A DNA stretch of 61,148 nt. Origin: Alphaproteobacteria bacterium UBA3637 (GTDB lineage: Bacteria; Pseudomonadota; Alphaproteobacteria; CAAHEQ01; UBA3637). The position numbers and the translations under genes are program-made. This document shows, piece after piece, positions 1 to 54,968 of this stretch. Numbering within the stretch: position 1 is the stretch's first letter; each line of letters starts with the position of its first letter. The DNA is taken from positions 1 to 61,148 of the forward strand of contig DFKU01000050.1 of assembly GCA_002373615.1 (NCBI GenBank), given 5' to 3'. The notes beneath the pieces are model-generated. The model saw only the letters and a program-made list of their open reading frames with translations. It made no database searches and was not told the origin of the DNA.

Positions 1-20
1 AAAATTTATTCATTTTTAAA

Positions 21-45
21 GCCCCTTAAAACGGGGCTTTTTTTT
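21..45 (+). terminator. Intrinsic terminator of a gene lying upstream of the window
   Basis: GCCCC(21-25)-loop-GGGGC(33-37) followed by T8. Confidence 0.6.
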
Positions 46-47
46 AC

Positions 48-239
48 TTGACTTTCAATGAAATCTTCACTAGGCTGAAAGGGTATTTTGACAGACGTCA
101 AAATACCGGAACTGAAATTCCAACATTAGAAATCCGTCCTTTGGGCGGATGGTCGCCCAATAAAAAAGAATAAGTGACACTGTTCTAATGCAGTATTTCA
201 GCATCCGTCCACTAAACAAAGTGGAGTTTTTTGTTTTTT
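48..239 (+). promoter_or_regulatory. Promoter plus structured 5' leader (copy A) ending in an intrinsic terminator, upstream of prepilin-like gene 259..1584
   Basis: TTGACT(48-53)-17 nt-TAGGCT(71-76). Hairpins GGTATTTTGAC/GTCAAAATACC and GGAA/TTCC. Long-range pairing GGGCGGATG(143-151)/CATCCGTCC(202-210) encloses CAATA and GAATA. Terminator TCCAC-N8-GTGGA(208-225) plus T-run to 239, then RBS. Confidence 0.5.
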
Positions 240-258
240 AAAAAAGAAAGGATGAAAA

Positions 259-1584
259 ATGAACAAAATTGGTAAATTAGAATCAGGTCGTTCCATGATT
301 GAAATATTGGGGATGTTGGCCGTGATGGGGGTATTAGGGATAACCGGTATTTCAGGATATAATTTAAGCATAAATAAGCACCACGCAAACGAAATTATTA
401 ACTCCGTATCAAAAATGGCAATTTCAGCATCAGGACAATTTATGACTCAAAATACTTTTTCTTTAAATGAATTTAATCATCGAACCGAAAACGGTTATAT
501 TGCATCAGAATTGATTTATGGAAAAGAACCGATTTTTGGTATTCGGATTAAAAATTTACCGAAAGAAATTTGTCAAAAAATTATAGCAACTCATTGGTCA
601 TCCCCCAAGGAAATTGCAATCAACGGAATTGTCATAACAGAAGCATCCAAATGTACAAAAAATGCTACTATTGATTTTATTTTTAGCAAAAATTTGGAAC
701 CAAGTACGTATGAAATAAAACGATGCCAAAATGATAGCCAATGCAGCGGATGTACCTCTTGTCAAAATTATGTTTGTACAGATGGCTGTGCCACAGGAAA
801 ATTGTGCGGAAAAGATATTGAAAATGCTGTTCAAAACACTTGTTGTTCGCAGAGTAATTACCTTGATGGGTTTTGCTGCCGAAAAATTCAAGGAGAATAT
901 TGCTTAAAAAATAATGGCGTTGGATGTCCGGTCGGTTATTTTTGGGGAGAATTAAACGAACAAGAAGGATGCTATTCCTGTGATGAAAATGAATTGATTA
1001 AAATAACATCCCTGTTCCTAAGCAGCTGTCATGTGTGTGATAACAGAGAAGCTATTTTTGGTCAATGTGTTTTACCTGATTACTGTGGCCCCGGACAAAT
1101 TTTACACCGTAATAATCAATGTGATGCCTGTGATTCTAATCAACGTTTAAATATTTCTATGGGGAAAGGCAGAACACGAGCACAATCTGTACGGGATTGC
1201 ATCACAAATTGTGCTGATTACAATCCTAATCGTAAAATTGCCTGCTATCGCACCATTTGGGACGGAACGGGATGCTACTGTTATCCGAATGGTTGTCCAA
1301 CGGGTTCTTCTGATGTGGAAGAAGAAGGTGTCTGCTTATCTTTACCCGGATATTATTACAATTATTACAATGCTGGAAATTTTTCCAAATGTCCCACAAA
1401 TCTTTCTGAAATAGACAATTGGCAATATTGTACAGATGAATGCCATTTAGTGTGGAACACTAACACCAATACCTGCTCTTTTCCAACGGATATCAGTGTA
1501 ATGGACTATCAATGGGGATGCGAAGCAGCCGGAGGTATCTGGTCCGGTGATTCAGATACAAACGGAAAGTGTTTAAGAAAATAA
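259..1584 (+). CDS. Prepilin-type N-terminal domain protein, paralog 1, with a very Cys-rich C-terminal two-thirds
   Basis: N-terminus MNKIGKLESG|RSMIEILGMLAVMGVLGITGISGY: G, then E at +5, then a hydrophobic helix (class III signal). The head domain is alignable to 2345..3526 and 24418..25734 (FGI..., ..ICQ.I...). The remaining ~280 aa are packed with Cys (CxxC, CC, CxC patterns). RBS AAAGGA lies upstream. Confidence 0.75.
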   Translation: MNKIGKLESGRSMIEILGMLAVMGVLGITGISGYNLSINKHHANEIINSVSKMAISASGQFMTQNTFSLNEFNHRTENGYIASELIYGKEPIFGIRIKNLPKEICQKIIATHWSSPKEIAINGIVITEASKCTKNATIDFIFSKNLEPSTYEIKRCQNDSQCSGCTSCQNYVCTDGCATGKLCGKDIENAVQNTCCSQSNYLDGFCCRKIQGEYCLKNNGVGCPVGYFWGELNEQEGCYSCDENELIKITSLFLSSCHVCDNREAIFGQCVLPDYCGPGQILHRNNQCDACDSNQRLNISMGKGRTRAQSVRDCITNCADYNPNRKIACYRTIWDGTGCYCYPNGCPTGSSDVEEEGVCLSLPGYYYNYYNAGNFSKCPTNLSEIDNWQYCTDECHLVWNTNTNTCSFPTDISVMDYQWGCEAAGGIWSGDSDTNGKCLRK

Positions 1585-2172
1585 CTATTCAAATTTTGTC
1601 ATTTGACGTTTCACACGCGCGATTTCTTTAAACAGGTTTTTGGGTGAACGAACAGAGCCGATAAAAGAGACTTGGTTTGGGCGGACCGCTTTATCTTTGA
1701 CCATTTGCATCATAAATTTTAAGACACCATCCCAATAATGATTATAATTCAGAAAAATAACAGGACGGGCCGACCATTCGCCAATTTTAAAGCGCACACC
1801 CATTGTGCCAATTTCATCCAAAGTACCCCAACCGCCGGGGGCCACCAAAACAACCTCCGCACGGGTCACCATGATTTTTTTGCGTTCTTCTAAGGTATCC
1901 ACTAATTTTAATTCGCCTCGTTTAAAAATAGATGGGTCAGCGCATTGTTTTTTTAACAATGGGGGAATCGTCACCCCCAAGACTTTACCGCCGACACTGC
2001 GGGCACCACTGTAGGCCGCCCCCATCATCCCAACATCCCCCACCCCATAAATCAAGGTATAACCTTTTGAGGCAATCAGTTGGCCTGTTTGATACACTTT
2101 TGAATAACAATCAACCGCAATATCGTAATTAGAACTGCCAAAAATCGCCATGGCGGGCGTGTGTTTTTTCAT
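1585..2172 (-). CDS. LOG-family (TIGR00730-type) Rossmann-fold nucleotide-binding protein
   Basis: Motifs GVGDVGMMG and VAPGGWGTLDEIGT (PGGxGTxxE) are typical of lysine-decarboxylase-like/LOG proteins. Confidence 0.75.
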   Translation of the reverse strand: MKKHTPAMAIFGSSNYDIAVDCYSKVYQTGQLIASKGYTLIYGVGDVGMMGAAYSGARSVGGKVLGVTIPPLLKKQCADPSIFKRGELKLVDTLEERKKIMVTRAEVVLVAPGGWGTLDEIGTMGVRFKIGEWSARPVIFLNYNHYWDGVLKFMMQMVKDKAVRPNQVSFIGSVRSPKNLFKEIARVKRQMTKFE

Positions 2173-2183
2173 GTTTCCCCCTT

Positions 2184-2303
2184 TTATTCTTTGACGACAT
2201 AAGTTTCGGGATAGGTAGATCCTGTGGGTCTTTCAGGCTTGGAAATCCGCCCGCATCCCGATAAAATAAAAGCCAATATCATAAGACAAAATATCTGTTT
2301 CAT
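2184..2303 (-). CDS. Small lipoprotein (39 aa), not in the ORF track
   Basis: My translation is MKQIFCLMILAFILSGCGRISKPERPTGSTYPETYVVKE, with lipobox L-S-G-C. It lies immediately upstream of the LOG gene on the same strand. Confidence 0.5.
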   Translation of the reverse strand: MKQIFCLMILAFILSGCGRISKPERPTGSTYPETYVVKE

Positions 2304-2344
2304 GGGGATAGTTTAACGCACCCAAAGGAGCATGTCAAGAAAAA

Positions 2345-3526
2345 TCATTCATCCAGATTTGTTTTGAATTCCCCCGTCCCAGAATTACAGAAAAGTTTTT
2401 TGGTGACGCGATCGAACATACAGGCTTTTCCCTCGCCTTTGGATGATTCGGGCGAAAGAACGGGAATAAGATGCATTCTTTCTTTATTTGTTGACATATC
2501 AATTATTTTTATAGAATAATGTTTTATATATTGCGTTGCACTAGTACTACCTATAACCCAGTCTCCGCTGATTGCATTAAATGTAGGTGTCGCTTTTGTT
2601 ACTCCATCTATATCAAAATGCTCTTTGTATAATTCATAAATATGATGACCAAATATTGTTGATGCTCCCACTGAACCAGCTGATGAACCAAATCTGATAT
2701 AAAAAGTATTTTGTTTGCTTCCAACATCAAAATAAGTGTTCGTTGCTTTTGCAATATAGCAATCACCAGTTGCTTCTGTTCTAATTATCTCACTATCAAA
2801 AATTATTTTATCTGTTTCTAAAGCTGTTAAACCTGTTTCAATTCTATTACCCTTTGCTTCATAGAGTATTTCCAAATACTGAACTCGTTTACAACCATCT
2901 TTACACTTGTGATTTTCTGTATCGCAGACCATACATTCATTTTCGGCGTTGCAATCCGTGTCATCATCACACTCATTGTCTGGTGGTGTGCATTCACTTT
3001 CGCACAAGTGCGTTGTGGAACTACATACCCCACAAACACCACAACTTTCATCACATTCACAATACTGTGTGTCGTTTTTCCCCGTCATATCGTTATTATA
3101 GATAAACAAGAAGCTGTTGTCTTCATCGCAAGAGGTGATGGGCGTGGTTGGGGTAGTTTCCTTACTCAATCGGCGGATGGGGGTGGTGTCTCCAATGGTG
3201 TTTAAAATATTTTGGCAGACGGTTTTTTTAACCCCTGATACCTCTATCCCAAATTGTTTATAAAGCCCCTCTGTTGTCACATCTTCAATAGTTCCGCCAG
3301 AAGTTTGATTTGGGGGATTAAATTCAGCCAGTGAGGGTTCGCGTCCATTAAATCCAATTTGCCCTGCCACAATGACCGCTCGGCGTTGTGCTTCTTGAAT
3401 CAAGGTGTTCGCTCTATTCTTATCCATCGCCACACCATACGCCCAAATTCCCGTAATGGACAGAATACCCATTATCGCCAATGTGCCCAATGTCTCTACT
3501 AAACTCCGTCCTGATTCTGTTTTCAT
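2345..3526 (-). CDS. Prepilin-type N-terminal domain protein, paralog 2, with Cys-rich spacer and a beta-rich C-terminal module
   Basis: MKTESG|RSLVETLGTLAIMGILSITGIWAYG. Conserved head (FGIEVSGVKKTVCQNILNTIGDTTPIRRL...FLFIYNNDM). Cys-rich stretch CECDESCGVCGVC...CKDGC. The ~190-aa C-terminus runs from VQYLE... to ...MFDRVTKKLFCNSGTGEF. Strong RBS AAAGGAGG. Confidence 0.75.
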   Translation of the reverse strand: MKTESGRSLVETLGTLAIMGILSITGIWAYGVAMDKNRANTLIQEAQRRAVIVAGQIGFNGREPSLAEFNPPNQTSGGTIEDVTTEGLYKQFGIEVSGVKKTVCQNILNTIGDTTPIRRLSKETTPTTPITSCDEDNSFLFIYNNDMTGKNDTQYCECDESCGVCGVCSSTTHLCESECTPPDNECDDDTDCNAENECMVCDTENHKCKDGCKRVQYLEILYEAKGNRIETGLTALETDKIIFDSEIIRTEATGDCYIAKATNTYFDVGSKQNTFYIRFGSSAGSVGASTIFGHHIYELYKEHFDIDGVTKATPTFNAISGDWVIGSTSATQYIKHYSIKIIDMSTNKERMHLIPVLSPESSKGEGKACMFDRVTKKLFCNSGTGEFKTNLDE

Positions 3527-3544
3527 TTTTGCCTCCTTTTAAAA

Positions 3545-3779
3545 GTTAAACAAATACTCACTTTGCAGTGAGTGGATGTTAGAAACTATATAGAAAGTAG
3601 ATAGTCTTACCTATTCAGGCAGACGCCTCTATTCGGTAAGCATCCACCCCAAAAGGTAGTGAATGCCCAACCAGGGAATTTGGGTTCCCTTTGTCCTTTC
3701 TATATGGGCTTCTAAACCCACTATCTGAATGGACCATTCAGACAGGGCTATTATAGACTGATTAGTCTTAAAATTTCAA
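3545..3779 (-). promoter_or_regulatory. Promoter plus structured 5' leader (copy B) ending in a terminator, directly upstream of prepilin-like gene 2345..3526
   Basis: On the minus strand: TTGAAA(3779-3774)-18 nt-TATAAT(3755-3750). Hairpins TCTGAATG/CATTCAGA, GGG..GCCC and GGGAA/TTCCC. GGGGTGGATG (plus-strand 3641-3650) pairs with CATCCAC (3572-3578), enclosing CTTACC-GAATAG-AGGC/GCCT-GAATAG-GTAAG. Terminator ACTCAC-N6-GTGAGT (3556-3573). Confidence 0.55.
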
Positions 3780-3868
3780 GTAAAAAATTTACTATTCATA
3801 AAATCTTTACTTTTTTTGAATTTCATGCTATAATACACCTTATTTTATCAGGGAAAAGGAAAATTATT

Positions 3869-5686
3869 ATGAATCAAAATATGCGCAATGTCGCCATTAT
3901 CGCCCACGTGGACCATGGGAAAACAACTTTTGTGGACGCTTTTTTAAAGCAATCCGGCACTTTTCGGGATAACCAACAAGTCGCCACCTGTGCCATGGAT
4001 TCCGGCGATTTGGAACGCGAACGCGGAATCACTATTTTTGCCAAGTGTACCTCGGTTGAATGGCATGGTACACGCATCAACATTGTGGACACCCCGGGAC
4101 ACGCTGACTTTGGAGGTGAGGTGGAACGCATTTTGTCCATGGTGGATGGCGTGATTGTGTTGGTGGATGCGGCGGAAGGGCCCCTGCCCCAAACCAAATT
4201 TGTGGTTGGAAAAGCTTTGAAATTAGGCCTGAAACCCATTGTTGTCATCAATAAAGTGGATCGCGCGGATGCCCGCCCTATGGAAGTCAACAATGAAGTG
4301 TTTGACTTATTTGCCAACTTGGGCGCCACGGATGAACAATTGGACTATCCCATTTTGTTTGCCTCTGGGCGTGAAGGTTGGGCCGTGGAAAATTTAAATG
4401 ACGAGCGCATCAACATTGAACCCCTTTTCCAAAAAATTATTGACCATGTGCCTGCCCCTGTGGTGGATGCCGATGGTCCCTTTAAAATGTTAGTCACCAC
4501 CTTGCACATGGATCCGTTTGTGGGACGCGTGCTGACAGGGCGCATTACTTCAGGCCAGGTCAAAACAAACCAAATGATTAAAGCACTTGACCGCAACGGA
4601 AACGTGGTGGAAACAGCGCGTGTCAGCCGAATTTTGGCGTTCCGCGGGCTCAAGCATCAAGCGATTGAAGAAGGGCTGGCCGGCGATATCGTCAGCATTT
4701 CCGGCTTTCAAAAAGCGACCGTTGCCGATACTTTGTGCGACCAAAGTGTGACTGAGCCCATGCAGGCGCAACCCATTGATCCCCCCACTTTGGCAATGAC
4801 CTTTTCCATCAATACATCACCGCTGGCGGGGCAAGATGGTGACAAAGTGACCTCACGGATGATTTGGGATCGCTTGGAAAAAGAGGCCGAAGGAAATGTG
4901 GCTTTACGGATTTCCCGCACGGATACCACCGATGCCTTTGAAGTGGCAGGGCGTGGCGAATTACAGCTGGGTATTTTGATTGAAACCATGCGCCGAGAAG
5001 GGTATGAGCTGTCCGTTTCCCGTCCGCGTGTGCTGTTCAAAGAAGAAAACGGCCAAAAGTTAGAGCCCATTGAAGAAGTCGTCGTAGATGTGGATGATGC
5101 CTATACCGGTGTGGTCGTGCAAAAGATGAGTGAACGCAAGGCTGAAATGGTGGAAATGACACCCTCCGGTCAAGGAAAGACAAGATTGATTTTCCATGCG
5201 CCGTCGCGGGGGCTCATCGGCTATCACAGCGAATTTTTAACCGATACCTGTGGTACAGGCGTGATGAACCGCATATTCTTGGAATACGCCCCCTATAAAG
5301 GCGATATTCAAACGCGCCACAATGGCGTGCTGATTTCCACTGAAGGCGGGAAGTCTGTGGCCTATGCCCTGTGGTACATTCAAGAACGTGGCCCCTTGTT
5401 TATCGGGGCTGGTGTGGATGTGTATCCAGGAATGATTATTGGCGGTAATGCCAAGATGGGCGATATTGAAGTGAACCCGATTAAAGGGAAAAAACTCACC
5501 AATATGCGTGCGGCAGGAAAAGACGAAGCGGTGGCTTTGGTGCCCCCCACGCAAATGCCTTTGGAAGCAGCACTTTCCTATATTGCGGATGATGAATTGG
5601 TGGAAGTAACCCCAAAGCACATTCGCTTGCGCAAGAAATATTTGGATGCCAATGATCGCCGTAAATTTGAACGCGGAAGATTGTAA
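3869..5686 (+). CDS. typA: Translational GTPase TypA/BipA
   Basis: Full-length 605 aa. AHVDHGKTT, DTPGH and NKVD G-motifs, plus a BipA-type C-terminal domain. Confidence 0.95.
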   Translation: MNQNMRNVAIIAHVDHGKTTFVDAFLKQSGTFRDNQQVATCAMDSGDLERERGITIFAKCTSVEWHGTRINIVDTPGHADFGGEVERILSMVDGVIVLVDAAEGPLPQTKFVVGKALKLGLKPIVVINKVDRADARPMEVNNEVFDLFANLGATDEQLDYPILFASGREGWAVENLNDERINIEPLFQKIIDHVPAPVVDADGPFKMLVTTLHMDPFVGRVLTGRITSGQVKTNQMIKALDRNGNVVETARVSRILAFRGLKHQAIEEGLAGDIVSISGFQKATVADTLCDQSVTEPMQAQPIDPPTLAMTFSINTSPLAGQDGDKVTSRMIWDRLEKEAEGNVALRISRTDTTDAFEVAGRGELQLGILIETMRREGYELSVSRPRVLFKEENGQKLEPIEEVVVDVDDAYTGVVVQKMSERKAEMVEMTPSGQGKTRLIFHAPSRGLIGYHSEFLTDTCGTGVMNRIFLEYAPYKGDIQTRHNGVLISTEGGKSVAYALWYIQERGPLFIGAGVDVYPGMIIGGNAKMGDIEVNPIKGKKLTNMRAAGKDEAVALVPPTQMPLEAALSYIADDELVEVTPKHIRLRKKYLDANDRRKFERGRL

Positions 5687-9420: not shown

Positions 9421-9681
9421 AGTGTCTTCCCCCCCCATATTCAGAACCCGTAGGGCTTCTTCTTGAACAAGATCAGGGGCCCCATTTTTTAAAGCCTGCA
9501 CTTTTTTTTGTAAAAGTTCTTTTTCTGCTTTTACATTTAAAGCGACCATTGAATGATGCTCATGTTCTTTATGAATTTGTTCTAAACGTAATATTCCACG
9601 ATTTCCATAAATACCATGGTAAATAAAATAAGCTGTAATCAAAACAGAAACCAGGGGAATCACATGGAAAAAATGTTTCAT
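9394..9681 (-). CDS. ftsB: FtsB/DivIC-like septum formation initiator
   Basis: 95 aa with an N-terminal TM helix, a coiled coil, and the ...EEALRVLNMGGEDTLII tail typical of this family. Confidence 0.6.
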   Translation of the reverse strand: MKHFFHVIPLVSVLITAYFIYHGIYGNRGILRLEQIHKEHEHHSMVALNVKAEKELLQKKVQALKNGAPDLVQEEALRVLNMGGEDTLIIFDTAQ

Positions 9682-11243
9682 GTATTTGCCCCTTCTTCTC
9701 GCATTTCTTCAGTAAACAGAGTGGCTTGATTTCGCCCATTTTCTTTCGAATGATACAAGGCAATATCTGCTTCTTTCGTCATTAAAGAAATATCTCCATT
9801 TTGGGTATTGGTGATCCCCAAGCTGATTGTAATGGGAACACGTGTTTGACCCGCCATAATAACAGCTTGTTCCACACTTGAGCGAATGCGTTCCGCCGCT
9901 ATTTTTGCCCCTTGAGCATCCGTATTACTGAGGAAAACAATAAATTCTTCCCCCCCAAAACGCGCAATAATATCCGAATCGCGATGAGTTTTATTCAATA
10001 CATCCGCAACCCGCTTTAAAACTTCATCCCCCATATCGTGCCCAAAAGTATCATTTACGTGTTTAAAATGGTCAATATCCAACATTATCATAGAATAAGG
10101 AATTTTTTGACGGATACAATTGGAAAGGGCCATCTGGCTCATCGCTTCGAACTGACGACGGTTATAAAGTCCGGTCAAGGTATCCGTAGAAGCCTCTTTA
10201 AAAAGCTTTTCTTCTGTTTGTTTTTGCGTAGTAATGTTTTGTAAGTTCATATAAAGAGCCAGCTCACCATCCAACTCTACAACACGCGCGGATAAATCCA
10301 ACCAGAGTATATCCCCTGTTTTAGGTGATTTCATTTTAACTTCAAAATTATCTACGATTTTCTTCTGACGCGCCATTTCAATCAATTCATCCCGTTTTTG
10401 GGGTTCTGTAAAATAATCTTTTAGGCGAAAATTTGAAATCCCATCTTTTTCCACTTTTAAAACAGAACATGCTATTGGATTAATGTAAATAACAGAATCA
10501 TCGAGCAATTTTGACACCAAAATAGGAAAGGGGGCAATATCCCAGAATTGAGTCCGGCGTTGCTTTTCTTTTTCAAGATTTTCTTCAAAATCAAGGCAGG
10601 TCACTTCCATAAACTTGATTTGAGCCATTAAGACTGAAAGGGAAACACCCCCAAATATAAAAATGGGAAACCAACCTGTTCCAGATATAAAATCAAATTC
10701 ACGCGCCAGATAATAAAGCGCCAGAACAAAAAAGGCATCCCCTACCCGGTCAAATAAAGAAGTTTTACCAACACTTTTCAACAAATGGAACGAAAAGCCT
10801 ACAACAACCCAACAAGCTGCCAATGACCAATAAATCAAATTGTATTCAGGAAAATAAATTTTAAATACATGAATAAAAATAACCTGAAGGACAAAAAAAA
10901 GAAAAACACAGGATAAAAGCGCAGACATTCCCAACGCACTGACCAACAAACTGACCCCCAAAAAAGAACACCCCAAACTGACTGTGATTCCTTGAATAAT
11001 TTCATACCCTTTAAATGAAATCAAAAAATTAGGATTTAACACAACCAATGAAGGTAATATAACCATCAAAAGGGTTCCAAAAGCCAAAATATAACAGGCT
11101 GTGGATATTAAATGAAACCGCCTTTTTTGGGTTGATCGAATAAAAAACATCCCAAAACATAAGCCCATAATCAAGTAGCCCAGACTTTCTAAGCCATATT
11201 GATTAAACCCTTGAACAATAATTTCAGACATTTCTTTAAACAT
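9678..11243 (-). CDS. Membrane-bound PAS-GGDEF diguanylate cyclase
   Basis: About 7 N-terminal TM segments, a PAS-like region and a GGDEF domain (DHFKHVNDTFGH...RFGGEEFIV). Confidence 0.85.
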   Translation of the reverse strand: MFKEMSEIIVQGFNQYGLESLGYLIMGLCFGMFFIRSTQKRRFHLISTACYILAFGTLLMVILPSLVVLNPNFLISFKGYEIIQGITVSLGCSFLGVSLLVSALGMSALLSCVFLFFVLQVIFIHVFKIYFPEYNLIYWSLAACWVVVGFSFHLLKSVGKTSLFDRVGDAFFVLALYYLAREFDFISGTGWFPIFIFGGVSLSVLMAQIKFMEVTCLDFEENLEKEKQRRTQFWDIAPFPILVSKLLDDSVIYINPIACSVLKVEKDGISNFRLKDYFTEPQKRDELIEMARQKKIVDNFEVKMKSPKTGDILWLDLSARVVELDGELALYMNLQNITTQKQTEEKLFKEASTDTLTGLYNRRQFEAMSQMALSNCIRQKIPYSMIMLDIDHFKHVNDTFGHDMGDEVLKRVADVLNKTHRDSDIIARFGGEEFIVFLSNTDAQGAKIAAERIRSSVEQAVIMAGQTRVPITISLGITNTQNGDISLMTKEADIALYHSKENGRNQATLFTEEMREEGANT

Positions 11244-24417: not shown

Positions 24418-25734
24418 TTATTCACATAAAGCTACAGGGTATGTTGAATACATCAACCATTTTAAATGTGGGTACATTCTTTCATAACCACTGGATTCTA
24501 TTGTTTGAGTATATCCATTAGTACAATCTTTTTCTAAATCCACATGGAATATTCCAATATAAGAACTTCCCAAATTTTCACTTTCCGCATTAAAAGCATT
24601 ATAAATCCATTTATCGCGGGCATTTACATAATCAGGAGTAACATTCGAACAATTTTCCAATGACCGCAATGTTTCTAATGTCACCAAATGCCCCTGATGA
24701 CCATCGATGGTTAACCTTTGACAAAAGTTTTTTGCAGACCAAGAAGTCATTCCCGCTATTGAACGAACAAAGTGTTTCTTTAAATTTTTTTCTTTATTGA
24801 TCCATGCATATACATCTGTGTATGTCGGTATAGGCTGACACGTTCCACGAGTAACTTTCACACATGTGTGAGAAGAATCACTATAATCCCCCTTTTGTTC
24901 GCAGTATTGTTCGGTATTTTCACACCATTGATTTGAGGTGCAATACGACACTTGGCGACACCCTTTGCTTCCATCACTGGACATATCGCAAACTTCATTT
25001 GATTCACAACAAGTATCACCACAAGGGGAACGCTGGTCCCCACAAAGACATTCCCCAGCAAAACAAGATGTTCCATCCATACATGAATCGCAACATTTTT
25101 CTTGACAAGAACCCGCATATTGTCCAACTCTACACCATTCAAATCCTGCAGCGCTACAGGAGATATCATTTATAAATTCCCCTGCGACAGGGTTGGTCGT
25201 CATATCATTATTATAAACCATCAAGAAAGTATTATCATCACCGCAGGTGGTAAGGGCTGTTTTAGGGCTATCCGTTGTTGATAATCTGCGGATAACTGTA
25301 TTATCCCCCAAAGTATTCAGGATATTCTGACAGATTTCTTTGTTCACACCTGATACTTTAATCCCAAATTGGCCTTCAGGTAAATTATCCGCTTTGGTAT
25401 AAACTTTTGCATCAAATATGGCATAACCCAAATTATTATTGGTAAATTCCGTTAAAGTTGGATTAGCATTATTTTGTAATTGAATTTGTGGGACTACCAA
25501 GGTCGCCCGTTTTTGGGCTTCATTGATGATGGTATTCGCTTTATTCTTATCCATCGCATTTTTAAAACCCGCTATTCCTGCAACAGACAAAACACCGATG
25601 ACAGCCAACACGCCCAGCATTTCGACCATGGAACGACCTGATTCTCCGTCATTCTGAGGGCAACACCCGAAGAATCTGATACCAGATCCTTCACTACGTT
25701 CAGGATGACGATATACTTTATAATTTTTACTCAT
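24418..25734 (-). CDS. Prepilin-type N-terminal domain protein, paralog 3, with Cys-rich spacer and a C-type-lectin-like C-terminus
   Basis: Start ATG at 25734 (RBS GGAAAAGG). The leader MSKNYKVYRHPERSEGSGIRFFGCCPQNDGESG|RSMVEMLGVLAVIGVLSVAGIAGF contains an in-frame MITE. Conserved head (FGIKVSGVNKEICQNILNTLGDNTVIRRL...FLMVYNNDM). C-terminus ...MTSWSAKNFCQRL..GHLVTLETL...WIYNAF...YPVALCE. Confidence 0.75.
   Translation of the reverse strand: MSKNYKVYRHPERSEGSGIRFFGCCPQNDGESGRSMVEMLGVLAVIGVLSVAGIAGFKNAMDKNKANTIINEAQKRATLVVPQIQLQNNANPTLTEFTNNNLGYAIFDAKVYTKADNLPEGQFGIKVSGVNKEICQNILNTLGDNTVIRRLSTTDSPKTALTTCGDDNTFLMVYNNDMTTNPVAGEFINDISCSAAGFEWCRVGQYAGSCQEKCCDSCMDGTSCFAGECLCGDQRSPCGDTCCESNEVCDMSSDGSKGCRQVSYCTSNQWCENTEQYCEQKGDYSDSSHTCVKVTRGTCQPIPTYTDVYAWINKEKNLKKHFVRSIAGMTSWSAKNFCQRLTIDGHQGHLVTLETLRSLENCSNVTPDYVNARDKWIYNAFNAESENLGSSYIGIFHVDLEKDCTNGYTQTIESSGYERMYPHLKWLMYSTYPVALCE
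25647..25710. mobile_element. Palindromic MITE-like repeat inserted in frame in the prepilin leader of 24418..25734
   Basis: On the minus strand: CGTCATCCTGAACGTAGTGAAGGATCTGGTATCAGATTCTTCGGGTGTTGCCCTCAGAATGACG. It has terminal inverted repeats and translates to HPERSEGSGIRFFGCCPQND. Confidence 0.6.
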
Positions 25735-25753: not shown

Positions 25754-25986
25754 TAAAAAATTGTGCCACTTGGCGTGAAAGTGGCTGGATGTTCAAAACT
25801 ATTCCACAAGTGATAGTGCGGTATATTACTCCGCAGCGGCTTTTATTCTACCGCCATCCAACCAATTGGTTTTCCGGCAGCAAATTACGCATTTACTTTA
25901 GCGCTTGTGGAATGAGGTTTTGAACCCTCTGAACGGACGCCAACCCGTTCATGAAAAAGTTTAGCATAAAGAAAATCCTTTTGCAA
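25754..25986 (-). promoter_or_regulatory. Promoter plus structured 5' leader (copy C) ending in a terminator, upstream of prepilin-like gene 24418..25734
   Basis: On the minus strand: TTGCAA(25986-25981)-17 nt-TAAACT(25963-25958). Hairpin GAACGG/CCGTTC. GGTTGGATG (plus-strand 25855-25863) pairs with CATCCAGCC (25783-25791), enclosing two GAATA motifs. Terminator GCCACTT-N7-AAGTGGC (25765-25785) plus T-run. Confidence 0.5.
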
Positions 25987-26064: not shown

Positions 26065-26140
26065 GACCCTATCGTCTAGAGGCCTAGGACATCGCCCTTT
26101 CACGGCGGTAACGCGAGTTCGAATCTCGCTAGGGTCACCA
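26065..26140 (+). tRNA. tRNA-Glu (anticodon UUC)
   Basis: Folded by hand. Acceptor GACCCTA/TAGGGTC. D-arm GTCT-AGAGGCCTA-GGAC. Anticodon stem TCGCC/GGCGG with loop CTTTCAC. T-arm GCGAG-TTCGAAT-CTCGC. CCA is encoded. Confidence 0.92.
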
Positions 26141-38251: not shown

Positions 38252-38500
38252 TTGCAATTCAAATAAAAATAAAATATAATGTCTTCGTTCGGATCGACCG
38301 TCCGAACTGAGGGAGTAGTAGCCCAAAAATATAGGCGAAAGAAGAATATTCTTTTGTTTGGCATTCACTTCTAAAGTGGAAAATTAAAAACTATCTTTAG
38401 GGTGGATGCCTACCGAATAAGGGTATCTGCCTGAATAAGTAGGGCTATTTCCTATGTTTTAGCTACTAACATCCACTCACTTTAACAGGTGAGTTTTTTT
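38252..38500 (+). ncRNA. Promoter plus structured RNA (copy D of the leader family) ending in a strong intrinsic terminator
   Basis: TTGCAA(38252-57)-17 nt-TATAAT(38275-80). Hairpins GTTCGGA/TCCGAAC, GGG..GCCC and AAGAA/TTCTT. GGGTGGATG(38400-08) pairs with CATCCAC(38470-76), enclosing CCTAC-CGAATAA-GG..CC-TGAATAA-GTAGG. Terminator ACTCAC-N8-GTGAGT plus T7 (38475-38500). Confidence 0.55.
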
Positions 38501-38506: not shown

Positions 38507-38571
38507 CGTCATTGCGAGGGCTTTAGCCCGTGGCAATCTGATGAGATTGCTTCACTATCGTTCGCAATGAC
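38507..38571. mobile_element. Palindromic MITE-like repeat
   Basis: CGTCATTGCGAGG...GGCAATCTGATGAGATTGC...TTCGCAATGAC. The two halves are inverted repeats around TGATGA. Confidence 0.6.
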
Positions 38572-38586: not shown

Positions 38587-39057
38587 ATGGAAAAAGTATG
38601 TGTATTTTTTGGTCACAGATTGATACCCAATTCCCAAGAAATTGAGCCACAACTAAAACGCGTGGTTCGGGAGTTGATTAAAGATGGCTTTAATACTTTT
38701 TGGTTGGGTGGGTATGGTGATTTTGACCAATTGGCGCAAAAAGTGACATGGGAATTAAAAAAAGAGTTTCCCTATATTCAACGTGTATTGGCTTTGGCGT
38801 ATTTACCCACGAACAAAGAAGACTATCAATTTAAAAGCCTGTATTATGATATGATGTTTTATCCTGAAGGCGTGGAACTGGGCCCCAAAAAATTCGCAAT
38901 TACCAAGCGCAACCGATACATGGTAGAAAATGCAGATGTGGTGGTGGCCTATGTGAACGCTGAAACAGGGGGGGCAGCGTATGCCTTAAAATACGCAAAA
39001 AAGTTAAATAAAAAAGTGATTGAATTAAAGCCCGATGGACCCAGAGAAAGAAATTGA
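38587..39057 (+). CDS. SLOG-fold / DUF1273-like protein
   Basis: VCVFFGHR......WLGGYGDFD...YMVENADVVVAY fits the DUF1273 (YoqJ/SLOG) pattern. RBS AAAGGAG before the ATG at 38587. Confidence 0.55.
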   Translation: MEKVCVFFGHRLIPNSQEIEPQLKRVVRELIKDGFNTFWLGGYGDFDQLAQKVTWELKKEFPYIQRVLALAYLPTNKEDYQFKSLYYDMMFYPEGVELGPKKFAITKRNRYMVENADVVVAYVNAETGGAAYALKYAKKLNKKVIELKPDGPRERN

Positions 39058-41367: not shown

Positions 41368-41513
41368 GGATTATTTTGTAAAAATCTCCCCCAATGTACC
41401 ATAAAAGATATTTTTTGTCAATTTTTATAAGACAAAAAACTTTTTTATAATTCTTGCACTTTTGGGGGATTTTAGGGTAATAGTTAAATCCCCTTTTTGT
41501 TGTTCAAAAAAGT

Positions 41514-41984
41514 TTATTTTTCCACAACTTCCCCGTTATCCAAGCCCCAAAGGCCAGAGCGGGGGAACCATCCTTTTTTGGTATGGTTTTCATCTGAGAC
41601 AGTAATTTTACAGTACCGACCCTGCGGGCATTCTTCCAGACGGGCAATTACCCCCGGTTGCACAATGGCCACAGGGTAAGATTCCGGATCATTCTTTTTT
41701 AAAAGAGACTCTTCCTTTTCCACAATCGCAAAGCGCGCTTTTTTCAGCATGTTTTGGTGTACCCATCCTACAGTACCTTCTTTATCACGCACTTGACGCC
41801 AAATTTCAAAGGTATCTAACACCTCCACTGGATAATTTTTTTCTTGATACACCCACAAAATCGGAAACCTTTCCCCAGGACCAGTCCGCATGTTGACTTT
41901 GTCATATTTCAAAGAGGCATACTCGGTTGCGTATCCCCCGAAAGACAAAAGCATAACAAATAAAAATACGCTCTTATTCATCAT
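41514..41984 (-). CDS. Secreted tandem SH3-like domain protein (alphaproteobacterial DUF1058/COG3807 type)
   Basis: The start MMNKSVFLFVMLLSFGGYA at 41984 is a signal peptide. ...VNMRTGPGERFPILWVYQEKNYPVEVL..WRQVRDKEGTVGWVH... is an SH3_3-like motif. Confidence 0.65.
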   Translation of the reverse strand: MMNKSVFLFVMLLSFGGYATEYASLKYDKVNMRTGPGERFPILWVYQEKNYPVEVLDTFEIWRQVRDKEGTVGWVHQNMLKKARFAIVEKEESLLKKNDPESYPVAIVQPGVIARLEECPQGRYCKITVSDENHTKKGWFPRSGLWGLDNGEVVEK

Positions 41985-42510
41985 CTTTTTTATACCTATC
42001 CCGAATCGAACGCGTCCCCCGTCTGGACGAGGGTTCCAGCGCTTTAAATTCATCCTCTTCTTCTGATTCATCCAATAAAATTTCATCTGTAGATGTTTTA
42101 TTGGTTTGAACCTGACGTTCAACCTCTTGCCACGCCACTTGTACGGCAGGAAAAATCACCAACTGCGCACATACAACTCCACGGTGTAAAACGTAATCAG
42201 ACGTAGAAGTATTACGTAAAAGGACAAACAAAGGCCCTCGTTCAGCCGGATGCAAAATACTGGGGGCATCCGATACAACGATCCCTTCTTTTCTGGCCAA
42301 TTTGGGCAAACTCACAACCTGACCACAATAACCATTGGGAATCCCTATAGCAAACCCCACAGGCACATAGGCACGTTCCCCCGGTTTCAATCTGACTGGG
42401 GCAGAAACCGCAGCTTGCAAAGTTAAAGCAATATGATCCTTGGATTCATAGCTGGGAAGAGGCAAACCTTCCCCATCTGACGTTCGACAAATGTAAAGTG
42501 TTGGTACCAT
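41974..42510 (-). CDS. dUTPase-fold protein with degenerate catalytic motifs
   Basis: Alignable by eye to Dut (PLPSYESKD..., ...GIVV..., ...VCAQLVIFP). Motifs I, II, III and V are replaced (IALTL, LPKLA, SILHPAERG, no GGFGS). The ATG at 42510 has RBS GGGGGA and lies 10 nt after the virB11 stop. Confidence 0.6.
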   Translation of the reverse strand: MVPTLYICRTSDGEGLPLPSYESKDHIALTLQAAVSAPVRLKPGERAYVPVGFAIGIPNGYCGQVVSLPKLARKEGIVVSDAPSILHPAERGPLFVLLRNTSTSDYVLHRGVVCAQLVIFPAVQVAWQEVERQVQTNKTSTDEILLDESEEEDEFKALEPSSRRGTRSIRDRYKKDDE

Positions 42511-42520
42511 TTTTCCCCCT

Positions 42521-43522
42521 TTAAGTAATTTCTGTAATTGCGCGAATATTCCCATTACGATTAATTTGAACAACGCGCAATTTATCCTTCATTTCTTTAA
42601 AAAGTTTTTCTTCTTCTGAACCAGAAAAACTTTGGTGATTACTTTCGGCAATACGCCCGATAAAAGCACGATAGGCTTCATTTGGGTCCGCTGCATGAAT
42701 AGTAGCAAAACAGTTTTCATGTCCCGAATTCATCAGCTTCCAAATGGCATTCGCATTCGTTGTGGAAATTTCCCCCCCCAAAATCGCATCCGGCGTAAAA
42801 CGTACCACCAAATCAATCACATTCGCATAAGTAAAAGTATTTGTGGCTTCAGTACGAGAAACAACCAAGTGAACATGATTCGGTTGCTTTACAATCAATT
42901 CGCGGGTATCTTCAATGGTAATGATACGCTTATGTTCATCCAATAACTTAATCATATTATTCAAAAAAGTCGTTTTACCTGTAGCCGTTGCCCCGCTGAT
43001 CAAGATATTATCCCCCCGCTGAATGGATAAAACCAGACGTTCATAGGGGTCATCAGGATCTTCCACATCTTTTAATCTATTCAGTTGACGTAACCGTCCC
43101 CCTTGTGTTAAACCGAATTGTTCCATACCAATATCCAGATCTTCACGATACACACGAATGGCCATGGCAATACCACCCGTCAAATCATCATTATCGTACA
43201 TAACGTTCCGACCCGCTATCCCAGAAAAACGATGTCCGCCGGGAAGTGCTGCAAACACCACAGGCACCCCACCAACAGGATCATAGGCTAAGTCATAGGT
43301 GTTAGCAATGATGTACATAATATCATTCAAATATTCACGAGTCAGTTTTGGATCTTCATAATAATGCCACGGATGAGCATGTTTTCCCCTGAGACGCAGC
43401 CATATTCCCCCCGGATTATCTATTGCCACTTCTTCCACATTATCTTGGGAATACCAATAGGAAAGCGGCCGAAGGGTCATTTCTAAAACTTTATAGGTAT
43501 CTGTGATTGAAAGGGTACTCAT
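42521..43522 (-). CDS. virB11: Type IV secretion ATPase VirB11
   Basis: Walker A GATATGKTT, Asp box IITIEDTREL, Walker B PDAILGGEI, His box GHENCFATIHA. Confidence 0.9.
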   Translation of the reverse strand: MSTLSITDTYKVLEMTLRPLSYWYSQDNVEEVAIDNPGGIWLRLRGKHAHPWHYYEDPKLTREYLNDIMYIIANTYDLAYDPVGGVPVVFAALPGGHRFSGIAGRNVMYDNDDLTGGIAMAIRVYREDLDIGMEQFGLTQGGRLRQLNRLKDVEDPDDPYERLVLSIQRGDNILISGATATGKTTFLNNMIKLLDEHKRIITIEDTRELIVKQPNHVHLVVSRTEATNTFTYANVIDLVVRFTPDAILGGEISTTNANAIWKLMNSGHENCFATIHAADPNEAYRAFIGRIAESNHQSFSGSEEEKLFKEMKDKLRVVQINRNGNIRAITEIT

Positions 43523-43531
43523 CGTTTTCCT

Positions 43532-50023: not shown

Positions 50024-50033
50024 TTAATTTCCT

Positions 50034-51707: not shown

Positions 51708-51776
51708 CTTTCCTCCCAATTTTTATTTAAATCTTTTGACATCTTAATCCAAAATCATCAGAATGTCCACACTTTT

Positions 51777-52487: not shown

Positions 52488-52504
52488 AAAAAATCCTTTT
52501 CCTA

Positions 52505-52681
52505 TTAACCAAGCCACTCAGGTAATTCGGGAGCTTTTTTCAATTCCAAACATGCACAGGGTGATTTTTTTAGTTCGGAATAATCTTTTCCAATCCCTAC
52601 AGGCTCTTGTTCATAAATGGAACCACACGCTACCAAGGCCAATACAGCCAATACAAGCAAAGTAACTGTTATTTTTTTCAT
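52505..52681 (-). CDS. virB7: VirB7-like small lipoprotein (58 aa), not in the ORF track
   Basis: My translation is MKKITVTLLVLAVLALVACGSIYEQEPVGIGKDYSELKKSPCACLELKKAPELPEWLG, with lipobox L-V-A-C. It sits between the two virB8 paralogs. Confidence 0.6.
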   Translation of the reverse strand: MKKITVTLLVLAVLALVACGSIYEQEPVGIGKDYSELKKSPCACLELKKAPELPEWLG

Positions 52682-53386: not shown

Positions 53387-53400
53387 GGTACTCTCTTTCT

Positions 53401-54960: not shown

Positions 54961-54968
54961 CTTCCCCC

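Follow-up and report, generated by a model that had tools for sequence, protein, structure and literature searches.

An sRNA-Xcc1-like family of structured leader RNAs with a predicted terminator switch in uncultured gut Alphaproteobacteria

Four repeated loci in a 61,148-nt stretch of DNA from Alphaproteobacteria bacterium UBA3637 (contig DFKU01000050.1, assembly GCA_002373615.1; hereafter the window) are copies of a large family of structured leader RNAs of about 200 nt, found in uncultured gut and rumen Alphaproteobacteria, that lie in front of surface-protein genes and are predicted to choose between stopping and continuing transcription. Each unit combines a sigma-70-type promoter, the leader RNA and an intrinsic terminator that ends 10-25 nt before the SD of a co-oriented gene (pilin-like, lipoprotein, OMP, secreted, XRE and others). 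The core of the RNA is a distant relative of sRNA-Xcc1 (Rfam RF02221), an existing but unexplained family, and is built like the c4 antisense RNA of phage P1. What is new is therefore not the fold, but its occurrence as the apparent sensor of a transcription attenuator.

A first-pass annotation made from the sequence alone had described four loci with a near-consensus promoter, a multi-hairpin leader, a long-range helix enclosing two (G/C)AAUA motifs and a terminator overlapping the 3' strand of that helix, and had suggested a candidate novel riboswitch or attenuator. Its observation was correct: all four loci are present at the coordinates and on the strands that it gave, and the closing helix (GGGUGGAUG/CAUCCACUC and variants), the inner helix, the 5' hairpin and the two (G)AAUA motifs are all there. 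Two details required correction. The overlap between terminator and closing helix is 3-4 nt rather than 2-3, and the -10 element of copy C is TAAACT rather than TATGCT, although the -35 was assigned correctly. The annotation missed the P1 hairpin, two pseudoknots and the sub-threshold match to RF02221. The promoters read TTGAAA-18-TATAAT in B, TTGCAA-17-TATAAT in D, TTGACT-17-TAGGCT in A and TTGCAA-17-TAAACT in C; that of B matches at 11 of 12 positions and is the best promoter-like site in window positions 1-4000. The genes downstream are as had been described, three encoding proteins with a prepilin-like N-terminus, which have no Pfam or NCBIfam hit, and one encoding a YpsA/SLOG protein. The parts of the four units, with bit scores from R2, a covariance model built from this family alone, are as follows.

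3545-3779 (-): copy B, whole unit of promoter, leader RNA and terminator (74.3 bits)
3774-3779 (-): B, -35 hexamer TTGAAA
3750-3755 (-): B, -10 hexamer TATAAT
3724-3742 (-): B, P0, the 5' hairpin (UCUGAAUGG/CCAUUCAGA); a P0 hairpin is present family-wide, with variable sequence
3705-3720 (-): B, P1 hairpin UGGG-UUUAGAAG-CCCA, whose loop is a1, the 5' strand of pseudoknot PK1
3696-3703 (-): B, b1 (AUAGAAAG), the 5' strand of pseudoknot PK2, which pairs with the P5 loop
3673-3690 (-): B, extra hairpin (AGGGAA/UUCCCU) at the position of P2' in other members
3655-3666 (-): B, r1 (GCAUUCACUACC), which pairs with r2, the predicted anti-antiterminator strand (10 of 10 nt of r2+1 paired; -12.3 kcal/mol)
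3641-3649 (-): B, r2 (GGGUGGAUG), the 5' strand of the closing helix, which can take either r1 or r3 as partner
3606-3640 (-): B, P4 arm, comprising helix CUUACC/GGUAAG, the symmetric internal loop GAAUAG (3629-3634)/GAAUA (3612-3616) and a distal hairpin at 3617-3628
3585-3605 (-): B, P5 hairpin ACUAU/AUAGU, whose loop CUACUUUCUAU is b', the 3' strand of PK2
3579-3584 (-): B, J strand S3 (UUCUAA), which is a', the 3' strand of PK1
3570-3578 (-): B, r3 (CAUCCACUC), the 3' strand of the closing helix, whose last 4 nt are also the start of the terminator stem
3548-3573 (-): B, intrinsic terminator (stem-loop 3556-3573, U-rich tail 3548-3555)
2345-3538 (-): B, SD AAGGAGG (3532-3538) and downstream gene (start 3526), encoding a 393-aa protein with a prepilin-like N-terminus (ESGRSLVETLGTLAIMGIL)
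48-239 (+): copy A (65.1 bits), the short type with no P2' and no distal P4 hairpin; -35 at 48-53, -10 at 71-76, P0 82-107, P1/a1 108-121, b1 124-131, r1 132-139, r2 143-151, P4 152-178, P5/b' 179-194, a' 195-201, r3 202-210, terminator 208-239, gene 259-1584
25755-25986 (-): copy C (78.8 bits); -35 at 25981-25986, -10 TAAACT at 25958-25963, P0 25931-25950, P1/a1 25914-25929, b1 25904-25910, P2' 25879-25897, r1 25868-25877, r2 25855-25863, P4 25818-25854, P5/b' 25798-25817, a' 25792-25797, r3 25783-25791, terminator 25755-25786, gene 24418-25734
38252-38500 (+): copy D (75.9 bits); -35 at 38252-38257, -10 at 38275-38280, P0 38287-38307, P1/a1 38311-38324, b1 38326-38335, P2' 38335-38357, r1 38361-38371, r2 38400-38408, P4 38409-38443, P5/b' 38444-38463, a' 38464-38469, r3 38470-38478, terminator 38475-38500, followed by a REP-like inverted repeat (38508-38571) and the YpsA/SLOG gene 38587-39057

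Searches with the covariance model returned 153 hits, of which 133 are distinct, so that the family has at least 133 distinct members in MAGs and metagenomes, with at least 8 units in one MAG. A terminator was found in 126 of 133, its 5' arm starting 6-7 nt before the end of the core, that is, 3-4 nt inside r3. An automated scan found a co-oriented ORF with an SD downstream of 121 of 133, usually starting 35-60 nt after the core, and the units that were inspected leave no room for a second promoter before the gene. A few units are orphans or tandem, with no ORF directly behind them (at the retrieved loci L043, position 1283, L087 and L088).

The predicted structure is supported. The single-sequence folds of the four copies are much more stable than those of shuffled sequences (z = -5.0 to -7.5, with 0 of 200 shuffles as good). 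In an alignment of 34 relatives retrieved through the downstream protein, and not through the RNA, 96% of cells pair, 13 of 20 pairs show changes on both sides, and the covariation score is 0.59, against 0.23 for shuffles and at most 0.15 for slid partners. In a sequence-only MAFFT alignment of 64 members, 95% of cells pair, 25 of 30 pairs are changed on both sides, and the score of 0.525 was reached by 0 of 500 shuffles and compares with at most 0.11 for slid controls. In this alignment r2 pairs with r3 in 99.5% of cells and P5 is 99% paired, with CUAU/AUAG changing to CCGU/ACGG or CCAU/AUGG, while all 6 P4 pairs, all 4 P1 pairs and all 7 PK1 pairs show changes on both sides. Both AAUA motifs are invariant. 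The absence of covariation among homologs had been named beforehand as grounds for rejecting the proposed family, and it was not what we found.

The core of the leader is thus a three-way junction made of the closing helix r2:r3, the arm P4 with its invariant symmetric GAAUA/GAAUA loop, the hairpin P5 and a 6-7-nt joining strand J. J (a') pairs with the loop of P1 (a1), and the P5 loop (b') pairs with the segment just after P1 (b1). In permutation tests, a member's own probe is the best in 40% of cases for PK1 against 2% by chance (z = -2.26) and in 13% against 1% for PK2 (z = -1.39, against -0.06 for the reversed control), and for r1:r2 it is in the top 3 in 49% against 14% (z = -1.18); reversed or irrelevant probes give z between 0 and -0.4. 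Every copy in a genome has a unique pair of a' and b', whereas r2 and r3 are shared, and the pseudoknots stay complementary as they vary. The tandem units at L088 have near-identical promoters but different, compensated codes.

The possible switch that the first-pass annotation had seen in copy A, where AUCCGUCC occurs on both sides of GGGCGGAU, holds across the family: an upstream strand r1 forms a hairpin with r2 in 95% of members, and r1 tracks the r2 type. The median calculated stability is -13.4 kcal/mol for r2:r3 and -10.9 kcal/mol for r1:r2, and that of the terminator falls from -11.4 to -5.0 kcal/mol when r3 is sequestered (from -12.8 to -4.0 kcal/mol in copy B). Because the 5' arm of the terminator starts inside r3, r1:r2, r2:r3 and the terminator exclude one another.

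Two further loop interactions were examined. A third pseudoknot, between the P2' loop and the segment before r1, is visible by eye in many members but is not significant (z = -0.38 and -0.63, against -0.20 and -0.38 for reversed controls) and remains tentative. Pairing between the P0 loop and the terminator loop is real only in a subset: about 21% of members have at least 6 nt of complementarity, UGAUGA pairs with UCAUC (Fisher p = 5e-8) and GGCGU with ACGCC in 3 of 3 cases, and in copy C the P0 loop UUGGCGU is complementary to ACGCCAA in the terminator loop, but a general duplex test was weak.

How does this family relate to known RNAs? At curated Rfam thresholds, only a tRNA was found in the window, and there is no match to any riboswitch family in Rfam 15. 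Below threshold, however, copy A matches RF02221 with 34.5 bits (E = 0.03 for the whole window) at 143-218, over the full model (positions 1-87 of 87), in an alignment that coincides with r2 to r3. Five relatives score 28-40 bits (L031 28.1, L124 40.0, L043 at position 1289 39.7, L079 31.9 and L108 31.4). All of these lie below the gathering threshold of 53 bits, and B, C and D give no hit at E <= 1 or E <= 10, making this family a divergent relative of sRNA-Xcc1 rather than a formal member. Detection is nevertheless reciprocal. A BLAST search with the Rfam consensus retrieved nothing useful from plasmids or E. coli genomes, but a pattern scan of viral contigs did yield sRNA-Xcc1 sequences, and in the resulting prophage loci (L206-L277) R2 finds 67 full-length sites at 19.6-48.7 bits; all 20 loci checked with Rfam hold bona fide sRNA-Xcc1 at 63-86 bits, coinciding with the R2 hits.

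sRNA-Xcc1 was detected in Xanthomonas campestris as a discrete RNA of about 88 nt whose 5' end is the first base of the closing helix (PMC2996969), and occurs in integron cassettes, prophages and genomic islands of beta/gamma-Proteobacteria. It shares with our family a 9-bp closing helix, an arm with conserved AAUA...GAAUA internal-loop nucleotides and an optional distal hairpin, a second hairpin, and a 6-7-nt joining strand before the 3' strand of the closing helix, which is followed by RCC/RCU. It likewise lies upstream of a co-oriented gene (10.1101/2025.06.18.660453; 10.1101/2020.03.17.996009) and occurs in several, sometimes tandem, copies per genome (PMC12189769), and an upstream hairpin loop and the adjacent segment are complementary to the joining strand and to the hairpin-2 loop. 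In our family the closing helix reads GGA(A/U)G/C(U/A)UCC instead of the G/C-rich GGGGG/CCCCC, the composition is AT-rich, the hosts are uncultured gut and rumen Alphaproteobacteria, and the downstream genes are chromosomal envelope genes rather than mobile-element genes. The r1 strand and a terminator overlapping r3 are present here and absent from the phage loci, which instead carry a second hairpin with the same loop and a segment overlapping the SD. In the phage loci, the own probe is best at this second set in 44% of cases for J and 35% for the P5 loop (z = -1.45 and -2.07), compared to 1-8% in our family (z = -0.16 to -0.32). The phage arrangement, which is our own observation, shows that in this fold class these two elements are recognition elements.

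The c4 antisense RNA of phages P1 and P7 (RF01695, RF03163), whose mechanism was reportedly established by Citron and Schuster (1990, 1992) and Biere et al. (1992), has the same topology: a long closing stem, hairpin 1, hairpin 2 with a large loop, a 7-8-nt joining strand, and then the 3' strand followed by CACC. It has two short recognition elements (a' single-stranded, b' in a loop) with complementary copies a1 and b1 upstream on the same transcript, is encoded in the sense-strand leader of the operon it controls, and has recognition sequences that differ between otherwise similar elements, as in heteroimmunity. There is, however, no detectable sequence or covariance-model similarity: the window gives no C4 or c4-a1b1 hit above E = 1, and R2 gives no hit at the C4 site of phage locus L208. 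P4 carries the GAAUA/GAAUA loop, which c4 lacks. Because our family has no a2/b2 set on the RBS, translational repression followed by Rho-dependent termination, the mode of action of c4, cannot apply, and the read-out here would be an intrinsic terminator competing with the closing stem. c4 is processed by RNase P; the only related observation in our family is that r3 is followed by R-C-Y (ACU, GCC, GCU or ACC). In the papers that we searched, we found none that describes this family or links sRNA-Xcc1 to c4 mechanistically.

The three-helix arrangement also resembles riboswitch and attenuator expression platforms such as the pbuE adenine ON switch and the trp 1:2/2:3/3:4 attenuator, with an anti-antiterminator, an antiterminator and a terminator, and the 3' strand of the sensor's closing helix doubling as the 5' arm of the terminator. 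A trp-type leader peptide can be rejected, since an SD and ATG with an ORF of at least 8 codons occur in only 31 of 124 leaders, at scattered positions apart from one cluster of 14 inside the core. The logic proposed below further recalls antisense-RNA-induced attenuation of plasmid rep genes (pT181, pIP501, pAMbeta1), where binding of a small RNA to the nascent leader decides between a pre-emptor helix and an intrinsic terminator, but there the regulator is a countertranscript from the opposite strand, whereas here any trans-acting RNA would be the same-strand leader itself, pairing through short loop and strand complements. An ops/RfaH-like reading of GGCGGUAG in P4 was rejected because that strand covaries freely with its partner. 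Resemblances to CsrA (GGA) and T-box (UGGN) elements were also set aside: GGA is always inside a helix and the gene set does not fit.

We favor, with moderate confidence, the view that each unit is a cis-acting transcription attenuator built on the fold of the sRNA-Xcc1/c4 class. The analysis itself establishes, at the level of sequence, the promoter-leader-terminator layout, the junction, the two copy-specific pseudoknots, the two conserved alternative partners of r2, of which r1 lies just upstream and gives a local hairpin that can form first, the loss of more than half of the terminator's stability when r3 is held by r2, and the lack of room for a second promoter in the units inspected. Termination, read-through and any processing are inferences from these features. 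If r1:r2 persists, r3 would be free, the terminator would form and an RNA of about 200 nt would be released (gene OFF); if r3 displaces r1, the Xcc1-like junction would close, the terminator would be crippled and RNA polymerase would read into the gene (ON). The trigger can be proposed only by analogy with c4. The a/b pairings may act as address elements, such that leader RNA already made could occupy a1 and b1 of a nascent transcript of the same gene in trans, preventing the cis pseudoknots that position r3 next to r2 and favoring termination, with gene-specific negative feedback as the result. However, these pairings could be purely intramolecular tertiary structure, and their diversity could be neutral drift with compensation. 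Nor does an RNA-only mechanism explain the invariant GAAUA/GAAUA loop, which, with the GGA/UCC pairs, is the likeliest contact for a shared factor, either a protein or RNase P-type processing.

The interpretation of the first-pass annotation is therefore only partly borne out. A genuine family of promoter, structured leader and terminator, helices kept by compensatory changes, and mutually exclusive pairings feeding into an intrinsic terminator are all supported. The claim of novelty is not supported as stated, because the core is the fold of an existing Rfam family, and neither is the term riboswitch, as there is no evidence for a ligand and the two pseudoknots are hypervariable, copy-specific pairings, a hallmark of the recognition elements of c4-type antisense RNAs and not of ligand pockets.

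A metabolite or second-messenger riboswitch, working as an ON switch in which a ligand binds the folded junction (r2:r3, P4 with the GAAUA/GAAUA loop, P5 and the two pseudoknots), stabilizes r2:r3 against r1:r2 and prevents terminator formation, is nonetheless not excluded, although we consider it unlikely. The fold is large and conserved, with strong covariation and invariant nucleotides (two AAUA motifs, and GGA/UCC within r2:r3), the expression platform is of the classic kind and physically overlaps the putative sensor, many copies per genome precede functionally related envelope genes, and the internal loop has pseudo-two-fold symmetry. A cyclic dinucleotide such as c-di-GMP would fit a regulon of pilin-like, outer-membrane, lipoprotein and secreted proteins, and a GGDEF gene lies in the window at 9678-11243. 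On the other hand, the relatives that do match (sRNA-Xcc1 and, by topology, c4) act, or are set up to act, by base pairing through exactly the two elements that form the pseudoknots here, riboswitch pseudoknots that shape a pocket are usually conserved in sequence whereas both are hypervariable and copy-specific here, and sRNA-Xcc1 relatives sit in prophages and integron cassettes in front of antirepressor-like and symE genes (10.1101/2025.06.18.660453), where a shared metabolite signal is hard to picture.

Somewhat more doubtful is a protein-dependent antitermination or termination leader, in which a dimeric or otherwise shared RNA-binding protein would recognize the symmetric loop, and perhaps the GGA/UCC pairs, and shift the r1/r2/r3 choice for the whole regulon at once. 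The two AAUA motifs are the only strictly invariant unpaired nucleotides across all copies and face each other across P4; in short-type members only 4-6 nt separate them, so they must form a non-canonical symmetric element, and the same motif (AAUACAAUA...GAAUAA) is conserved in sRNA-Xcc1. This reading is compatible with the attenuator anatomy, but no candidate protein gene is consistently linked to the units, it does not explain why the a/b pairings are copy-specific, and the loop could equally be an RNA tertiary-contact or metal site, or an RNase P or other processing determinant.

It is less likely still that the units are stand-alone small RNA genes, as sRNA-Xcc1 is annotated, that act in trans on other mRNAs and only happen to lie upstream of genes, with the terminator simply ending the sRNA. 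Each unit has its own promoter and terminator, sRNA-Xcc1 was detected as a discrete RNA, and a few units are orphans or tandem. Yet with co-oriented ORFs behind 121 of 133 units and no room for another promoter in those inspected, the genes must be transcribed through the terminator, and r1 and the overlap of r3 with the terminator are conserved features that make sense only for a termination decision. A search of the window for sites complementary to both a' and b' of each copy, by co-occurrence of 6-mers, gave only noise in this AT-rich sequence. Finally, a duplicated 5' UTR or promoter-carrying mobile repeat without regulatory structure, suggested by the 4 copies in 61 kb, the tandem duplicates and the unrelated REP-like palindromes common in the same genomes, is contradicted by covariation, as the copies have diverged to 57% column identity yet six helices are kept by compensatory changes; no terminal inverted repeats or target duplications were seen in the flanking sequences read, and orientation relative to the downstream gene is fixed.

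A more far-reaching possibility, which we regard as speculative and unlikely on present evidence but of great interest if true, is that these units represent a chromosomal expansion of self-addressed c4-like leader RNAs. Every envelope-protein gene would carry its own two-part address code, and the terminated leader would accumulate and feed back in trans only on nascent transcripts of its own gene, setting terminator read-through. Such gene-by-gene RNA-based feedback could produce heritable ON/OFF states, that is, phase-variation-like control of pilin-like, OMP and lipoprotein genes without any DNA rearrangement. As a corollary, the widespread sRNA-Xcc1 family would be c4-type immunity or regulatory RNAs, not generic trans-acting sRNAs.

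Our findings provide a context for sRNA-Xcc1, which is annotated in many proteobacterial genomes, integrons and prophages as a trans-acting sRNA of unknown action. Here its fold appears as the putative sensor of an attenuator, and in prophages it shows the full a1/b1, a'/b' and a2/b2 arrangement of phage P1 c4, making a concrete, testable mechanism available for the whole class. They also point to a dense regulon of pilin-like, outer-membrane, lipoprotein and secreted proteins in uncultured gut and rumen Alphaproteobacteria, whose gene regulation is essentially unknown. The design itself is unusual, combining two hypervariable pseudoknots with an invariant symmetric loop and a three-way helix competition, and whether the trigger turns out to be self RNA, a protein or a small molecule, the result would be a new regulatory principle or a new ligand class on an old fold.

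The first-pass annotation described four loci of one architecture, promoter, structured leader and terminator, and all four are present where it placed them, on the strands it gave; we refer to them as copies A to D:
48-239 (+), copy A
3545-3779 (-), copy B
25754-25986 (-), copy C
38252-38500 (+), copy D

A direct alignment of the four shows 57% mean column identity, with invariant blocks around GGAUG, two AAUA motifs, ACAUCC and CACU. Each leader folds far better than its dinucleotide shuffles, with z = -7.5 for B, -6.5 for D, -5.2 for A and -5.0 for C, and 0 of 200 shuffles as stable. The promoter of B (TTGAAA-18-TATAAT) is the best sigma-70-like site in window positions 1-4000, and the terminators of A and B are picked up by a consensus scan, whereas for C the -10 that fits a 17-nt spacer is TAAACT. 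The downstream genes are also as annotated, three with a prepilin-like product and one encoding a SLOG-fold protein:
259-1584, 2345-3526 and 24418-25734, genes for proteins with a prepilin-like N-terminus (G-R-S-M/L-V/I-E followed by a hydrophobic stretch) and no Pfam or NCBIfam match
38587-39057, a gene for a YpsA/SLOG protein, followed by a U32 peptidase gene

Other elements lie among or near these units. A 64-nt REP-like inverted repeat (GUCAUUGCGAGG...CGCAAUGAC, 38508-38571) sits between the copy D terminator and the SD, and related palindromic inserts (window ~25645-25707 (-), and the entries labelled P0003 and P0020) are translated in frame inside the N-terminal leaders of pilin-like genes, for example HPERSEGSGIRFFGCCPQNDG in the copy C gene. 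A tRNA gene (26065-26137 (+), Rfam 60.5 bits) is transcribed divergently from the copy C promoter, about 80 nt away. Further along, the window carries a type IV secretion-like cluster (41500-60700 (-)) that includes a 2163-aa TrbI/VirB10-like protein with beta-flower domains (43532-50023) and a CagX/VirB9-like protein (50034-51719).

Homologues of the B protein occur only in uncultured Alphaproteobacteria MAGs, and their upstream regions carry the same leader, with compensatory changes visible by eye. We collected relatives in three steps. A protein-based scan of species-representative genomes gave 80 loci from human, ruminant and rabbit gut MAGs; a covariance model of the 3' core, built from 6 and then from 34 sequences, found 34 elements in the window plus those loci, with a clean gap to noise; and a DNA pattern scan of metagenomes returned at least 120 stretches, nearly all of which were confirmed by the model. 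Together these amount to at least 153 hits, 133 of them distinct. The metagenome set is biased at the pattern positions, and we therefore cite the protein-anchored set for the closing helix and P5. The core model also scores weakly (24-29 bits) on the opposite strand of true elements at four collected loci (L046:3642-3727 (+), L099:738-823 (-), L200:835-920 (+) and L205:2285-2369 (-)), because r2/r3 of the GGUUGGAAG/CUUCCAACC type are self-complementary; these hits are artefacts and were removed. One clear family member (locus L063, 366-449) lies on a rabbit gut contig binned as Candidatus Gastranaerophilales, which is either mis-binned or evidence of a wider host range.

Reading 5' to 3', the unit consists of a promoter, a P0 hairpin, a P1 hairpin (typically GAGG-N8-CCUC), a 7-nt segment termed b1, usually a hairpin P2', strands r1 and r2, arm P4 (a 6-bp helix followed by a symmetric internal loop GAAUA/GAAUA, with or without a distal hairpin), hairpin P5, a 6-7-nt joining strand (J, or S3), strand r3, an intrinsic terminator, and the SD and start codon. 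On the protein-anchored alignment 96% of cells are paired and 13 of 20 pairs changed on both sides, giving a covariation score of 0.59, against 0.23 for shuffles and at most 0.15 for slid partners. On a sequence-only MAFFT alignment of 64 non-redundant full-length members, the fraction of cells paired is 92% for P1, 99.5% for r2:r3, 94.5% for P4 and 99% for P5, and the pseudoknot between the P1 loop and J (PK1) has changes on both sides in 7 of 7 pairs, one position reading, for example, GC in 25 sequences, AU in 19 and CG in 15; none of 500 shuffles reaches any of the five measures. The second pseudoknot, between b1 and the P5 loop (PK2), could not be put in register column by column and was instead tested by permutation across sequences. 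In this test the own probe is best in 40% of cases for PK1, against 2% by chance (z = -2.26), and in 13% for PK2, against 1% by chance (z = -1.39), with a reversed-probe control for PK2 at z = -0.06.

Two further loop pairings are less widespread or less certain. In about a quarter of family members the loop of P0 is complementary to the terminator loop, as UUGGCGU/ACGCCAA in copy C (25931-25950 and 25755-25786 (-)) and as UGAUGA/UCAUCA or UGGUG/CACCA in others; the association is significant (Fisher p = 5e-8) and looks like a possible kissing contact or a third "address" pair, although copies A, B and D lack it. In many long-type members, such as those in the upstream regions of the loci L148, L183 and L126, the loop of P2' (CGUC...GACG) is complementary to the segment just 5' of r1, which would be a third pseudoknot mirroring P1/PK1 next to r3, but this is visible by eye and not statistically established.

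Strand r2 has two conserved partners. In local folds it pairs with a strand 3-10 nt upstream, r1, in 95% of members, and r1 follows the r2 type: CCUUCUGGUC with GACUGGAAGG, CCUUUUUGCC with GGCAGGAAGG, CAUUCGUCC with GGGCGGAUG, and so on. The own r2 type ranks in the top 3 of 22 in 49% of cases, against 14% by chance. The terminator was found in 126 of 133 members, with its 5' arm starting 3-4 nt inside r3. As duplexes, r2:r3 (median -13.4 kcal/mol) is stronger than r1:r2 (-10.9) in 83% of members, and the terminator region drops from -11.4 to -5.0 kcal/mol when r3 is sequestered. An automated search found an SD and start codon downstream of 121 of 133 units, usually 35-60 nt after the core, which leaves no room for another promoter. 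Together these give the anatomy of a three-state transcription attenuator, in which r1:r2 is the anti-antiterminator and r2:r3 the antiterminator, followed by the terminator; there is no conserved leader peptide. Some whole units, from promoter to terminator, occur in tandem with no ORF between them (loci L088, 560-1071, and L087, 28-1138), and one orphan unit faces a convergent gene (locus L043, 1283-1364).

What does the family control? Sorting the ORFs downstream of the 133 units by sequence motifs alone gives at least 53 pilin-like genes, 17 proteins with lipoprotein-type signals, 20 with other signal or TM N-termini, some ending in the ...RY(T/N/M)F motif expected of outer-membrane beta-barrels, and 31 others, including what look like XRE-type regulators, glycosyltransferases, methyltransferases and an ankyrin-repeat protein. 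On this motif-based sorting, the regulon is therefore mostly envelope and secreted proteins.

Rfam 15 at curated thresholds finds nothing in the window except the tRNA. At permissive thresholds a single family appears repeatedly, sRNA-Xcc1 (RF02221, gathering score 53), always full length and always exactly on r2 to r3: copy A scores 34.5 bits, and among the relatives the elements at L031, L124, L043:1289, L079 and L108 score 28.1, 40.0, 39.7, 31.9 and 31.4 bits, respectively. The alignment shows the same parts in the same order, including AAUA...GAAUA in the first arm. In the reverse direction, a pattern derived from the Rfam consensus gave 72 prophage loci (L206-L277), Rfam scores all 20 of the loci checked at 63-86 bits, and our model R2, which contains no such sequence, gives 67 hits over the 72 loci, at 20-49 bits and full length. 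The core of this family is thus a divergent branch of the sRNA-Xcc1 fold, although not a formal member by Rfam's cut-off. In the literature examined, which gives no mechanism for it, sRNA-Xcc1 is an 88-nt RNA in Xanthomonas (PMC2996969), lies upstream of symE in the most widespread Xanthomonas integron cassette (10.1101/2025.06.18.660453) and upstream of an ORF6N protein in APSE phages (10.1101/2020.03.17.996009), and is present in seven copies, five of them clustered, in Xylella (PMC12189769).

The prophage loci also connect this fold to c4. In several of them, sRNA-Xcc1 lies just downstream of a c4 antisense RNA, and the Rfam c4 consensus has the same topology as the Xcc1 core: closing stem, hairpin, hairpin with a large loop, single-stranded joining strand, 3' strand, then CACC. 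In the prophage sRNA-Xcc1 loci (for example L208:1380-1960 and L206:2400-2700), both the joining strand and the second hairpin loop have exact 5-8-nt complements in two places, upstream in a hairpin loop and the adjacent segment, and downstream, where the second complement lies 10-16 nt before the ATG, that is, on the SD of the next gene, which codes for antirepressor-like proteins. The own probe is best in 44-47% of cases for J, and in 21% (upstream) and 35% (downstream) for the loop, whereas reversed controls give z = -0.1 to -0.5. This is the a1/b1 - a'/b' - a2/b2 arrangement of c4 in phages P1 and P7, where, in the immI region, a2/b2 cover the icd RBS; we found no paper in the literature searched that makes this link for sRNA-Xcc1. 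In the Alphaproteobacterial family, the upstream set (P1 loop and b1) is kept but the downstream set is absent; at the position of the phage "a2 hairpin", which also overlaps r3, sits the intrinsic terminator, and r1 has been added as well.

The best-supported reading is a c4/Xcc1-type leader RNA rewired from translational control to transcription attenuation. Our analysis establishes the anatomy and the mutual exclusivity of the pairings, whereas the assignment of r2:r3 to the ON state and r1:r2 to the OFF state is inferred from the energetics and from the full-length MFE folds, which show r1:r2 (or its equivalent) together with the terminator. For the trigger we can offer only candidates. 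RNA-RNA self-recognition has in its favor that the two pseudoknot strands are the recognition elements of the relatives; that they are hypervariable, while r2/r3 are shared between copies; that every copy within a genome has a unique a'+b' pair (J and the P5 loop), in 4 of 4 copies in the window and 8 of 8, 5 of 5 and 4 of 4 in three MAGs; and that the two tandem units in L088 have almost identical promoters but different, compensated a/b codes. By contrast, the invariant GAAUA/GAAUA loop and the GGA/UCC pairs point to a shared factor or ligand.

We consider an attenuator on an Xcc1/c4 fold likely. The full statement, including self-addressed feedback by which a leader RNA would act on transcripts of its own gene, is about as likely as not when taken as a package, and the feedback step on its own remains tentative. 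Among the alternatives, a small-molecule riboswitch is possible but unlikely; a GGDEF diguanylate cyclase gene in the window (9678-11243 (-), Pfam E = 2e-45) indicates that the organism has c-di-GMP signalling, which is relevant only to this alternative. Protein-dependent control is somewhat less likely still, and a stand-alone sRNA is the least likely of these options.

The observation made in the first-pass annotation is real, and the family is larger and more intricate than was apparent from the four copies. Its interpretation as a candidate novel riboswitch or attenuator is only partly supported, since the attenuator anatomy is borne out but the element is not categorically new: its core belongs with sRNA-Xcc1, and it works with the parts list of c4. 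What is new is the attenuator wiring, comprising r1 and the terminator, and the chromosomal expansion of these units in front of envelope genes in gut Alphaproteobacteria. As a by-product, the c4-like target arrangement of the prophage sRNA-Xcc1 loci is also new, and it suggests that sRNA-Xcc1 is a c4-type translational repressor.
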